From assembly GCA_036336835.1 (NCBI GenBank), contig JAYZFK010000034.1, positions 18,432 through 82,431 on the forward strand: 64,000 bases of DNA, given 5' to 3'. Below, piece after piece: positions 34,432-36,806 of the stretch. The notes beneath the pieces were generated by a model. It made no database searches. It was not told the DNA's origin and saw only the letters and a program-made list of their open reading frames with translations. Every line of letters begins with the position of its first letter. Position 1 is the first letter of the stretch. The position numbers and the translations under genes are program-made. The stretch is from Myxococcota bacterium (GTDB lineage: Bacteria > Myxococcota_A > UBA9160 > UBA4427).

Positions 34432-35526
34432 TCAGCCGGCGTCGACCGTGCGCTGTCCGAGCAGGTTGAGCTTGAACTTGCGAATGACCGCGGGCTCGAT
34501 CCGCACGCCCTTCTCGTCCTCGAAGAACAGCGCGTCCTTCGGACATTGCACGACACAGGCGCCGCAACGGACACAACGGTCGTCGTGGGCCAGCTCGACC
34601 TTGCGCTCTCCTTCCCGCTTCTCGAAGCAGGCTTCGGGACACACCTCCCAGCAGCGGTACACGCCCTCGCAGCGCTCGGGGTCGAGCGTGATGCTCCACT
34701 CCCGCTGCTCGAAGTGGCTGCTGCCTTCGAGCGGGGTGCTGCCCGCGTAGTCGAACGTCAGGAGGAAGCCGATCACGCCGGGCAGCAGCGCAGCAGCCAC
34801 CAGCGCCGGCGCTCCCCCGCCTGCAAGAAACGTCCCGAGCACGGCCAGCGCCGAGCTCACCAGGACGAGAACCGGGCGGCGCGCGCTGCCGAGGCGGTCG
34901 TACAGGGTGAAGACCGCGACCGACATCGCGGCGATCAGAGCGATGACCGGCAGCGCCCAACCAGGTTGCAGCCAGAGTGCGATGCCTCCCGCGATGAGGG
35001 CCGCTGGGACGCCCCACATCGCGGCCATCTCGAGCCGCTCCGAGAGTGAGAAGCGGACGCGGCGCATCGCGTCGGTCTTCTCGCTCGTGGCGAGATACTC
35101 CGGCAGATCGCTCGCGCTCACCGGACCGAAGGCGACCTTCCAGCGGCAGCGGCGGAACACCTCGAGCGCCGTCACGCCCGTGGCGGCCAGCTGCGGGAGG
35201 ATCACCCGGCGATGCTTCACCCGCTCAGCGATTCCCGAGGTCTTGAGCACGGTCACGACCTGGTGCGTCGAGAGATGGCCGCCGGCCGCCGCGCACCACA
35301 CGTTGATTCCGCCCGAGGGCGCCACCAACAGCCACGCGTCGTGCCCTTCGAGCGCTCGAGCCAGCCGCCTCACTGTCAGGTCGTAGTTCCCGGTCAGCAG
35401 CACCGGGCTCGTCTCGTCGGGCTCGCCCAGGCGTCGTAGGCCGGGCTGGGTGGGCCACGGCGCGAAGCGAAACGCAGTCTGCAGCAGCTCGAGGCACCCG
35501 TCGCGGCATCGCGCGCCGATCGTCAT
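34432..35526 (-). CDS. Fused HgcA/HgcB-like protein: corrinoid-binding (CdhD/CFeSP-like) domain + 4 TM helices + ferredoxin-like domain
   Basis: The N-terminal domain is collinear with HgcA ('SPVLLTGNYDLT', 'DAWLLVAPSGGINVWCAAAGG', 'HRRVILPQLAATGV', 'MRRVRFSLSERLE'). Hydrophobic helices span about aa 166-260. C-terminal 'CEGVYRCWEVCPEAC' plus canonical 'CVRCGACVVQCP'. SD-like AAGGGAG lies upstream of ATG 35526. Confidence 0.8.
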   Translation of the reverse strand: MTIGARCRDGCLELLQTAFRFAPWPTQPGLRRLGEPDETSPVLLTGNYDLTVRRLARALEGHDAWLLVAPSGGINVWCAAAGGHLSTHQVVTVLKTSGIAERVKHRRVILPQLAATGVTALEVFRRCRWKVAFGPVSASDLPEYLATSEKTDAMRRVRFSLSERLEMAAMWGVPAALIAGGIALWLQPGWALPVIALIAAMSVAVFTLYDRLGSARRPVLVLVSSALAVLGTFLAGGGAPALVAAALLPGVIGFLLTFDYAGSTPLEGSSHFEQREWSITLDPERCEGVYRCWEVCPEACFEKREGERKVELAHDDRCVRCGACVVQCPKDALFFEDEKGVRIEPAVIRKFKLNLLGQRTVDAG

Positions 35527-35530
35527 GCCC

Positions 35531-36187
35531 TCACGCTCCCTTGTGTGCGACCGCCAGGCTCAGCGTTCCCATCAGCCAGCTGCGTGGCTCTGCGAGCGAC
35601 AAGCCTGTCGCGCGAAGTTCGCTTTGCAGGTCCGGGATGGGACGCGACACGGAGCCCACCAGGAGCCAGCCAGCGGCCGCCTGCGGAACGCGCATCACTC
35701 CCTGCAACACGCGCCTCCAGCCCGAGGGAGCTCGGACCTCGTCGGCGACGACCAGGCGTCCGCCCGGCGCCAGGCAGCGGGCCGCCTGGGCGAGGACGAA
35801 GGCTCGCTCGCTCGGCGACATGTCCGAGAGGCACAGGCTCAGCACGACGGCCTGGTAGCTCCCGGCAGCGAAACGATCGATCTCCGCAGCGGTCTGCTCG
35901 ATCCACTCGACCTCCACCGCCGGGGCGCCGAGTCGCGACCTGGACTGCTCGAGCATCTCCGGGGCCTGGTCGATCGCGGTCACGCGCGCACCCCGCTCGA
36001 GCATCAGCGCCGTGACCGTTCCCGTTCCGCAGCCGACCTCGAGAACGCGGTCACCCAGCGAGACGACCGCAGCCCCTGCGACCGCCGCGTGGAGTCGGCC
36101 GACCCGCCCGAAGGTGAGCGCCTGCATGCCGGCGTCGTAGCGCCCGGGTGAGCCCTCGAGCCAGCGCATGAGCGCGAGCGAGCTCAC
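35531..36187 (-). CDS. Class I SAM-dependent methyltransferase
   Basis: Motif I 'VLEVGCGTGTVT', post-I 'VTAIDQAPEM' and 'LAPGGRLVVAD'. 218 aa. GTGA overlap with the upstream TetR gene. Stop lies 4 nt before the HgcAB-like start. Confidence 0.85.
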   Translation of the reverse strand: MSSLALMRWLEGSPGRYDAGMQALTFGRVGRLHAAVAGAAVVSLGDRVLEVGCGTGTVTALMLERGARVTAIDQAPEMLEQSRSRLGAPAVEVEWIEQTAAEIDRFAAGSYQAVVLSLCLSDMSPSERAFVLAQAARCLAPGGRLVVADEVRAPSGWRRVLQGVMRVPQAAAGWLLVGSVSRPIPDLQSELRATGLSLAEPRSWLMGTLSLAVAHKGA

Positions 36188-36765
36188 GCTCGAACCATCC
36201 GGTGCATCGCGTCGACCAGGGCATCAGCGAGCACGTCTGGCTCGGGGAACCCGCGCGAATCGACGAAGTACTGCAGCAGCAGCCCGTCGATCGCACCGAT
36301 CACGATCGACGACAACACCCCTGCATCGGGCTGTGCCACAACGCTGCCGTCGCGCTGACCCTCGGCGATGACGGCTGCCAGCTCGCGGCGGAGCCCGCGG
36401 AAGTACGAGCGGAGCCGGCTCGCACCCTCCATCCGCAGATCGAGAATCATGCGGCCAAACTCGGCCCACTCCGGAAAGAGCGCAGCGCAGGCGCGCGAGA
36501 GCGACTCGAGGCGCGCGAGCGGGGCTCCCTCGCTGCGCAGACAGACGCGAAACAGCTCCCGCTCCTGCCCGAGCAGCTCGTTCAGCATGTCGCTCAGCAG
36601 CGCTTCCTTGTCGGCGTAGTAGTGGTAGAGGCTGGATCGGCCCATCCGCGCCTCCTGCGCAACGTGCGCGAGGCCGGTGCCGCGAACACCCCGCCGCGCG
36701 AAGACGCGCCGCGCCGCAGCGCGGATCTCCACTCGCTGGCTGGCGGCATCTACGATCTTCGGCAC
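36184..36765 (-). CDS. TetR/AcrR family transcriptional regulator
   Basis: HTH 'TGLAHVAQEARMGRSSLYHYYADKEAL'. 193 aa. GTG start at 36765. Confidence 0.9.
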   Translation of the reverse strand: MPKIVDAASQRVEIRAAARRVFARRGVRGTGLAHVAQEARMGRSSLYHYYADKEALLSDMLNELLGQERELFRVCLRSEGAPLARLESLSRACAALFPEWAEFGRMILDLRMEGASRLRSYFRGLRRELAAVIAEGQRDGSVVAQPDAGVLSSIVIGAIDGLLLQYFVDSRGFPEPDVLADALVDAMHRMVRA

Positions 36766-36778
36766 GCCGCGAGTCTAG

Positions 36779-36806
36779 TTTATTTCGACATCATTGTCGA
36801 AATAAA
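36779..36806. promoter_or_regulatory. Perfect 12-4-12 inverted repeat, probable TetR operator in a divergent promoter region
   Basis: 'TTTATTTCGACA tcat TGTCGAAATAAA'. Every arm position pairs. It lies 14 nt upstream of the TetR GTG and 113 nt upstream of the divergent CMD-family gene. It is strongly AT-rich in a GC-rich background. Confidence 0.6.

Follow-up and report, generated by a model that had tools for sequence, protein, structure and literature searches.

A TetR-preceded member of the widespread CpaM and HgcAB-like gene pair in a Myxococcota bacterium, a candidate module for methyl transfer through a corrinoid protein

HgcA, the corrinoid protein of mercury methylation, joins a CFeSP-type corrinoid domain, which bears a Cys residue in its cap-helix motif, to a following transmembrane (TM) domain, and the ferredoxin HgcB is a second polypeptide in which a further Cys past the second Fe-S motif, or a pair of Cys at the C terminus, is implicated in the handling of Hg; HgcB has Cys73 and a C-terminal Cys there (residue numbering as in Capo 2022). 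The diagnostic motifs of these proteins are N[V/I]WC[A/S][A/G/S]GK for the cap helix of HgcA and C(M/I)ECGA for HgcB (Hg-MATE; PMC10087281). A single-chain relative, known in the literature as "fused HgcAB", was first reported in 2015 (PMC4646819) and forms a separate deep clade beside HgcA (PMC10083202). Here we analyze a locus coding for such an HgcAB-like fusion protein in a Myxococcota bacterium (assembly GCA_036336835.1, contig JAYZFK010000034.1, positions 18,432 to 82,431; this whole stretch of 64,000 nucleotides is referred to below as the window), in which a tetR gene, the methyltransferase gene cpaM, and the fusion gene follow one another (Table 1). This fused clade is the one treated in Podar 2015, Gilmour 2018, and Lin 2023. 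A preliminary description of the same DNA, made by reading its sequence, had proposed that the fusion protein and the S-adenosylmethionine (SAM)-dependent methyltransferase form a methyl-transfer system, and its claims are taken up below where our results bear on them.

As a first point, both core proteins belong to families that are already curated. The fusion protein matched the NCBIfam model NF043039 ("HgcAB-like fusion protein") with 399.7 bits (E 1.5e-119; protein residues 13-333, covering 3-349 of 350 model positions), well beyond the equivalog cut-off of 285 bits, and the methyltransferase matched NF043040 ("corrinoid protein-associated methyltransferase CpaM", NCBIfam) over its full length (1-216/216) with 248.7 bits (E 3.9e-74), where the curated cut-off is 180 bits. 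In the related loci described below, 79/79 fusion proteins matched NF043039 and 77/77 methyltransferases matched NF043040. The preliminary description had known of no system of such composition; that claim did not survive, as NCBIfam holds models for exactly this pair. The pair is therefore already catalogued in databases, with its function uncharacterised, and our literature search found no paper naming CpaM or its pairing with an HgcAB-like protein. Judged by these profile matches, the window locus is a member of a widespread two-gene module and is nothing new in kind. Its architecture, gene order, tight spacing, cap-helix Cys, and Fe-S Cys residues are like those of the 148 other loci, with no essential difference; what sets the window clade apart is a TetR gene upstream, complete with an operator, and a variant of the first Fe-S motif that reads Cx5Cx3CP(xxC) in place of CxxCxxCxxxCP.

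The strongest evidence on this module is the linkage of its two genes across genomes. Our survey, which took one genome per species, returned at least 597 loci with a relative, some of which are possibly true HgcA, and 80 loci were kept. All 80 were HgcAB-like and came from Myxococcota, Chloroflexota, Acidobacteriota, Actinomycetota, Gemmatimonadota, and several archaeal phyla (including Heimdall- and Bathyarchaeia). Inspection of the neighboring genes revealed cpaM directly upstream and on the same strand in 76 of these 80 species-representative loci (at least 2 of the 4 exceptions are cut by contig ends), and the two genes overlapped or lay ≤30 nt apart in 68 of the 74 loci that could be scored. 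An independent metagenome set gave the same arrangement in 72/72 evaluable loci, bringing the total to 148 independent loci, and a reciprocal look-up found CdhD plus Fer4 domains downstream of 3/3 CpaM homologues on long contigs. Many of the CpaM and fusion hits also coincide in the length of their contigs. Moreover, methyltransferase, corrinoid domain, TM helices, and ferredoxin are joined in a single open reading frame (ORF) in two of the loci (L077 and L080), and when such a single-ORF fusion served as the query, more than 100 distinct clusters (90% identity; about 590 aa) came up that have both Methyltransf and PF03599 domains. An AlphaFold2 (AF2) model of one single-chain fusion reached a predicted TM-score (pTM) of 0.80 over all four domains, suggesting that the position of the methyltransferase is fixed in the chain. 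Another candidate, P0077 (636 aa), was rejected as a methyltransferase fusion, being merely a C-terminal read-through. When ORFs from 4.5 kb around the fusion gene in the 80 loci were clustered all against all, CpaM and TetR were the only neighbors that recurred; since no other neighbor recurs, the module is self-contained.

These counts leave very little room for the idea that three unrelated genes are packed together incidentally and that TetR regulates instead the divergent gene of the carboxymuconolactone decarboxylase (CMD) family. The one observation in its favor is that the operator lies in the intergenic region that tetR has in common with that CMD/AhpD-like gene (Table 1); on the other side stand the linkage of methyltransferase and fusion in 148 loci, the single-chain fusions, the 4-nt overlap of tetR and cpaM that is kept in at least 11 genome loci, the occurrence of the CMD gene in 0/80 related loci, and its retention in a sister lineage (L161) despite decay of tetR. 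We consider such packing to have next to no likelihood, and for the cpaM-fusion pair it is effectively refuted: the linkage is obligate and chance adjacency is excluded. The operon-level coupling that had been proposed for the methyltransferase and the fusion protein is thus borne out by the near-universal adjacency, the reciprocal look-ups, and the abundant natural fusions.

At the level of the window itself, the coordinates and junctions of the three genes were re-read and all hold. The tetR stop and the GTG start of cpaM share 4 nt (GTGA); 4 nt (gggc) separate the TGA of cpaM from the ATG of the fusion gene, with a Shine-Dalgarno sequence, AAGGGAG, 9 nt 5' of that ATG. Third-position GC in the three ORFs is 0.84-0.87, which is the level of real genes, in a window of 69% GC. 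Going by the closest relatives of the three genes, a Myxococcota-like host is probable.

We then compared the fusion protein with known folds. The order of a corrinoid domain, four hydrophobic helices, and a ferredoxin module, as read earlier, is what Pfam (CdhD and Fer4), hydropathy, and AF2 with Foldseek all recover, and profile and structure comparison alike place the N-terminal domain among CdhD/CFeSP/HgcA-like domains. A phmmer search matched the corrinoid domain to CFeSP structures 2h9a/2ycl at E 5e-10. The AF2 model of the protein (mean predicted local distance difference test score, pLDDT, 83.7; pTM 0.82) had as its top PDB match in Foldseek the integrative HgcAB model 9a0b, of which chain A aligned with 34% identity over 281 columns and chain B (31% identity) aligned on the ferredoxin part; the next matches were CFeSP large subunits, with a root-mean-square deviation (rmsd) of 2.4-3.7 Å over about 135 residues. 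Hydropathy peaks mark TM helices at 168-186, 190-208, 219-237, and 240-258, and both soluble domains are predicted to be cytoplasmic because the TM2-TM3 loop (DRLGSARRP) is Arg-rich. In the cap helix, G73, W77, and C78 are invariant among 79 family members and N75 and V76 nearly so; the window protein reads NVWCAAAGG where the family consensus is NVWC[AGS][AS]xGG, and Cys78 is presumed to be the lower axial ligand of cobalt. The AF2 pLDDT falls below 50 at residues 74-82, the cap motif (I)NVWCAxxG (model maab9f9b804f5), and likewise at residues 303-312 of model m40cf4bfdb325, with the surrounding domain above 90, a pattern to be expected if this segment is ordered only with bound corrinoid.

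The first Cys motif of the ferredoxin module reads C286-x5-C292-x3-C296-P-x2-C300, which is non-canonical and has no second Cys of the CxxCxxCxxxCP pattern, like 7Fe-type ferredoxins, and the second motif is canonical (C318xxC321xxC324xxxC328P). Seven of the eight Fe-S Cys residues are invariant in the 79 members, C300 being the exception. A PDB sequence search aligned residues 286/290-339 with the 7Fe ferredoxin I. Because the first motif resembles those of 7Fe ferredoxins, one cluster may be a [3Fe-4S] cluster, and the module of the window clade probably holds a [3Fe-4S] plus [4Fe-4S] pair; distant family members, the triple fusions included, have two canonical motifs. Taken together, the invariant C78 and the seven invariant Fe-S Cys residues suggest that the fusion protein binds a corrinoid and Fe-S clusters. 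The whole sequence contains Cys at positions 7, 11, 78, 127, 286, 292, 296, 300, 318, 321, 324, and 328, and none beyond C328.

Some relatives depart from this pattern. A subgroup with canonical Fe-S motifs (L070, L071, and L078) has Cys-rich C-terminal tails (CSCPTC...), and the L034 protein has a CC pair; both recall the C-terminal Cys of HgcB, and neither occurs in the window protein. In two other loci, an in-frame TGA stands at a conserved Cys of the first motif (L024:818-1939, codon 302, and L030:5001-6119, codon 298, corresponding to window C292 and C286), and both ORFs stay conserved beyond it, which could be a selenocysteine/Cys pair. The hairpin that follows the TGA of L030 did not exceed shuffled sequence in stability, and no convincing selenocysteine insertion sequence was seen. 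A TGA at a first-motif Cys occurs in 0/80 metagenome relatives of the L030 type, and one relative of that type has a TGA at a Trp codon. We left the selenocysteine variants as unproven, an assembly error or a pseudogene being as likely.

Given the resemblance to HgcA and HgcB, we asked how far it extends. The fusion protein shares with HgcA the CFeSP-type corrinoid domain, the Cys in the cap-helix motif, and the TM domain behind it, its ferredoxin part is homologous to HgcB, and a deposited HgcAB model is its best structural match; it differs in being one polypeptide where HgcA and HgcB are two, and in the obligate SAM methyltransferase partner of the fused family, which is no described part of hgcAB. 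The HgcA and HgcB profile searches that had been proposed earlier found the protein related to both and under both cut-offs, and NF043039 was passed instead: against HgcA (NF040863) it scored 174.6 bits, below the equivalog cut-off of 275, and against HgcB (NF040864) 53.5 bits, below the cut-off of 99. None of the 79 relatives did better than E 1e-52 against NF040863. The cap motif ends without GK, and the ferredoxin motif reads CVRCGA and not C(M/I)ECGA. By these measures, the window protein is neither a true HgcA nor a true HgcB.

The same comparisons bear on the possibility that the locus is a genuine mercury methylation system, with a fused HgcA and HgcB making methylmercury from a methyl group supplied by CpaM. 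No characterised family is closer than HgcA (HgcA_corrinoid alignment across residues 26-220, E 3e-51), the cap-helix Cys is conserved, and the 9a0b match points the same way; yet the two sub-threshold scores, the two deviating motifs, the missing Cys past the second Fe-S motif, and the separate deep branching of the fused clade all speak against it. Furthermore, as the preliminary description had noted, the cultured hosts of fused genes that were tested do not methylate Hg: Pyrococcus furiosus and Methanococcoides methylutens both gave no methylmercury (PMC4646819, PMC5893877). True mercury methylation by the window system is unlikely, and we regard it as improbable to the point of carrying little weight. 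The window contains no arsenic or mercury genes.

As for the methyltransferase, Pfam Methyltransf_25/11 (E 5e-20) agrees with its earlier identification as a class I SAM methyltransferase from the motif VLEVGCGTG. Conserved features are the SAM motif GxGxG, the acidic D73, and the family-specific N-terminal LE..P.RYD.G and ADE / R..P motifs. A fold comparison for substrate hints matched only generic class I methyltransferases. From its sequence and its partner, CpaM is predicted to use SAM and to have the corrinoid protein as substrate or partner.

On the basis of these observations, our main interpretation is that CpaM and the HgcAB-like protein, preceded by TetR in the window clade, work as a module in the order SAM, Co(I), acceptor, and we put its probability at roughly 0.6. 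In this model, a TetR dimer on the palindrome over a single promoter would keep tetR, cpaM, and the fusion gene off until a small ligand releases the repressor; tetR would be autoregulated, all three genes would lie on one transcript, and tetR and cpaM would be translationally coupled via the GTGA overlap. The HgcAB-like protein would be anchored by its four helices with the soluble domains in the cytoplasm, the CFeSP-type domain would hold a corrinoid with Cys78 as lower ligand, and the fused Fe-S module would reduce Co(II) to Co(I) with a low-potential electron. CpaM would dock on the corrinoid domain and use SAM to methylate Co(I), which yields CH3-Co(III); from there the methyl group would move on, at the face of the membrane, to an acceptor that is probably something other than Hg(II). 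Cofactor content, the direction of methyl flow, repression, and the acceptor are all predictions of the model. A more specific version, in which a SAM-driven methyl-cobamide machine with Cys-ligated cobalt serves a non-Hg electrophile (a metalloid or a membrane-soluble organic compound) and this acceptor or its precursor is the TetR inducer in the clade, is tentative, and we would give it less than even odds.

The proposed chemistry has partial counterparts in described systems. The CFeSP (AcsC/CdhE) and MeTr of the Wood-Ljungdahl pathway share the corrinoid-binding fold, within the rmsd range given above, and the same logic, which is proposed on the window side, that Co(I) is loaded by a methyltransferase dedicated to it, and that an Fe-S cluster within the corrinoid protein serves to reactivate it by reduction. 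In contrast, the donor of CFeSP is methyl-tetrahydrofolate, delivered via a TIM-barrel MeTr where the window has a Rossmann-fold SAM enzyme, and CFeSP is soluble and heterodimeric, has no Cys ligand, and has the A-cluster of ACS as its acceptor. Three features define a CFeSP large subunit: a score of at least 306 bits against NF003195, a [4Fe-4S] domain at the N terminus, and neighboring CODH/ACS genes; the window protein reached 82.4 bits, for the C-terminal corrinoid domain only, and the window contains no CODH/ACS genes. The sequence SAM to Co(I) to CH3-Co(III) to substrate has its precedent in MetH reactivation and in the class B (cobalamin-dependent) radical SAM methylases, which have different cobalamin-binding domains (His-on or base-off Rossmann B12) and different SAM modules, and the window proteins contain no radical SAM domain.

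Several points weigh against our interpretation. We infer corrinoid binding, SAM use, and methyl transfer across all family members from sequence, and co-transcription of the three genes from the overlaps; the AF2 confidence is low exactly at the cap-helix motif; and cobamide synthesis or uptake genes were absent from the window. In addition, most family loci lack TetR and the nearest relatives have it in decayed form, so that gating says little on core function. Finally, CpaM has a generic UbiE/Coq5-like class I fold and could methylate a small molecule, e.g., the product or substrate of the corrinoid protein.

That last point leads to the main competing explanation, that CpaM leaves cobalt alone and that a single membrane-associated small molecule is acted on by the two proteins in turn. 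The corrinoid/Fe-S protein might, for instance, carry out a reductive step, or a methyl-transfer step with another donor, and CpaM would add a conventional SAM methyl group to the substrate or the product. The nearest relatives of CpaM are indeed small-molecule C/O/N-methyltransferases (UbiE/MenG, Coq5, TleD, ChlM, and ArsM-type cores), a corrinoid with two Fe-S clusters is the cofactor set of corrinoid reductases too, and TetR regulators usually sense organic ligands. However, the corrinoid domain has the fold of the CFeSP methyl carrier and no reductive-dehalogenase fold, more than 100 clusters have the methyltransferase fused directly in front of the corrinoid domain, the fusion being modelled as one compact body, and no other methyl-donor gene (MeTr/MtrH-like or methyl-tetrahydrofolate enzymes) recurs beside the pair. 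We therefore hold such action in sequence to be unlikely, though it is the alternative to be taken most seriously. Methyl transfer from SAM to a corrinoid appears to be the best-supported model; it draws on the linkage, which is obligate, on the fusions found in nature, on the methyl-carrier fold of CFeSP, and on the lack of any other recurrent donor-side gene.

Next, we turn to the regulator. Pfam assigned the first gene of the row to TetR (TetR_N E 3e-13; TetR_C_6 E 3e-6), in line with its earlier naming. Its orthologues are 43-65% identical and show the same 4-nt overlap with cpaM in L001-L006, L008-L010, L013, and L164-L168. Position 36806, at which the preliminary description let its segment end, is the edge of an inverted repeat that it left undescribed. 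This perfect 12-bp repeat, TTTATTTCGACA-n4-TGTCGAAATAAA, is the putative TetR operator. Its core, TCGACA-n4-TGTCGA (TCGACAnnnnTGTCGA), has a single exact occurrence in the window; allowing 0-1 mismatch, 10/10 orthologous loci have it 11-36 nt before tetR, and of 8 exact matches in 726 kb of loci, 7 are upstream of tetR. A sigma-70-like promoter overlaps the operator (Table 1); promoter-like sites numbered one in 34200-37100 when 0.1 was expected from shuffles. The tetR start lies about 7 nt past the -10 hexamer, and the leader would therefore be very short or absent. A second operator-like palindrome, GCGACAagccTGTCGC (35596-35611), at the 3' end of cpaM and about 70 nt before the fusion ATG, was set aside as probably due to chance, having two mismatches to the core and being unconserved in the orthologous loci. 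The locus carries no cobalamin, SAM, or other riboswitch of an Rfam family.

The distribution of TetR is much narrower than that of the pair. It was directly adjacent in 16/80 genome loci, some of them from other phyla with different palindromes, and in 0/80 metagenome loci, which represent another subgroup. The nearest relatives with conserved synteny (L161-L163), whose fusion protein is 88% identical, keep only a pseudogene remnant of tetR: tetR residues 4-46 are left, with 49% identity, in L161:3597-4000 (also in L162 and L163), which is syntenic with window 36184-36918. The right half-site of the operator is mutated there, whereas both promoter hexamers and the cpaM-fusion pair are intact. 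This pattern fits a repressor whose loss is tolerated. TetR is a clade-specific accessory to the module. In the window clade a TetR has a putative operator at its own promoter, and the earlier term "TetR-gated" was overstated for the system as a whole; in the neighborhood survey that had been suggested, the methyltransferase kept its place and TetR did not. In L161-L163, a Methyltransf_21 (FkbM-type) gene of about 325 aa, absent from the window, follows the fusion gene.

Table 1. Positions of the features of the tetR-cpaM-fusion locus in the window (position 1 is the first nucleotide of the window).
Feature	Position	Strand	Description
tetR	36184-36765	minus	193 aa, GTG start; TetR/AcrR-family repressor
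cpaM	35531-36187	minus	218 aa; class I SAM-dependent methyltransferase; motif I VLEVGCGTG at residues 48-56
HgcAB-like fusion gene	34432-35526	minus	364 aa; corrinoid domain, 4 TM helices, and ferredoxin module
Corrinoid-binding (CdhD/CFeSP-like) domain	35101..35460	minus	Residues 23-142; Pfam PF03599 E 8e-16
Cap-helix motif GINVWCAAAGGH	35275..35310	minus	Residues 73-84; Cys78 codon 35293-35295
Four TM helices	34753..35031	minus	Residues about 166-258, two tight hairpins; from hydropathy, helical in the AF2 model
Ferredoxin module	34525..34692	minus	Residues 279-334; Pfam Fer4 models
Putative TetR operator	36779..36806	minus	Perfect 12-bp inverted repeat; ends 14 nt 5' of the tetR GTG
Sigma-70-like promoter (predicted function)	36772..36800	minus	TCGACA-17-TAGACT, overlaps the operator
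CMD/AhpD-like gene	36919-37476	plus	Carboxymuconolactone decarboxylase family; divergent from tetR, common 153-nt intergenic region with the operator

The remainder of the window has little bearing on the module. The CMD/AhpD-like gene could be co-regulated in the window and is unlinked to the module in the 80 other loci; likewise, the XrtH-like, 217-aa ORF, and PAS-kinase neighbors are linked to it in none of the 80 loci. Regions 37513-38731 and 38735-51389 code for an XrtH-like exosortase (TIGR04177, 95.5 bits), then an overlapping membrane ORF of 217 aa without a family match, and after these PMT_2-type and GT2 glycosyltransferases, an epimerase, and a polysaccharide deacetylase, looking like an unrelated exopolysaccharide/exosortase cluster; the XrtH gene, the 217-aa ORF, and the PMT_2 gene are syntenic in L161. 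Further flanking genes code for a PAS hybrid kinase, an AMP-binding enzyme, and an AcrB pump, all unrelated. An MMPL/RND-like transporter, accompanied by LolA-like and DUF1302 genes, and an AcrB-type RND pump elsewhere (11981-16750, 26107-29223) are ordinary genes of envelope and efflux and show no link to the module.

The window locus is ordinary for its family, and it is the family-wide linkage to CpaM, together with the single-chain fusions, that carries the interest. The methyl donor of HgcA and the role of "fused HgcAB" are two questions on which this linkage bears, as the invariant CpaM partner suggests a methyl source for such B12 proteins. That the fused clade always comes with a single, dedicated SAM methyltransferase, often in the same chain, provides a testable methyl-donor hypothesis, for which the minimal reconstitution system would therefore be two proteins or one natural protein of 590 aa. 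The version with TetR and an operator gives genetics an entry point, since whatever induces the repressor may point to the substrate. In mercury ecology, our results reinforce that such genes are not to be counted as hgcA; metagenome surveys at present must filter these paralogues out as non-methylators. If the more specific version of the model, with a SAM-driven methyl-cobamide machine serving a non-Hg electrophile, is right, the module would be the first defined methyl-loading route in the HgcA superfamily and would assign a function to a paralogue of hundreds of bacterial and archaeal species, aerobes included.

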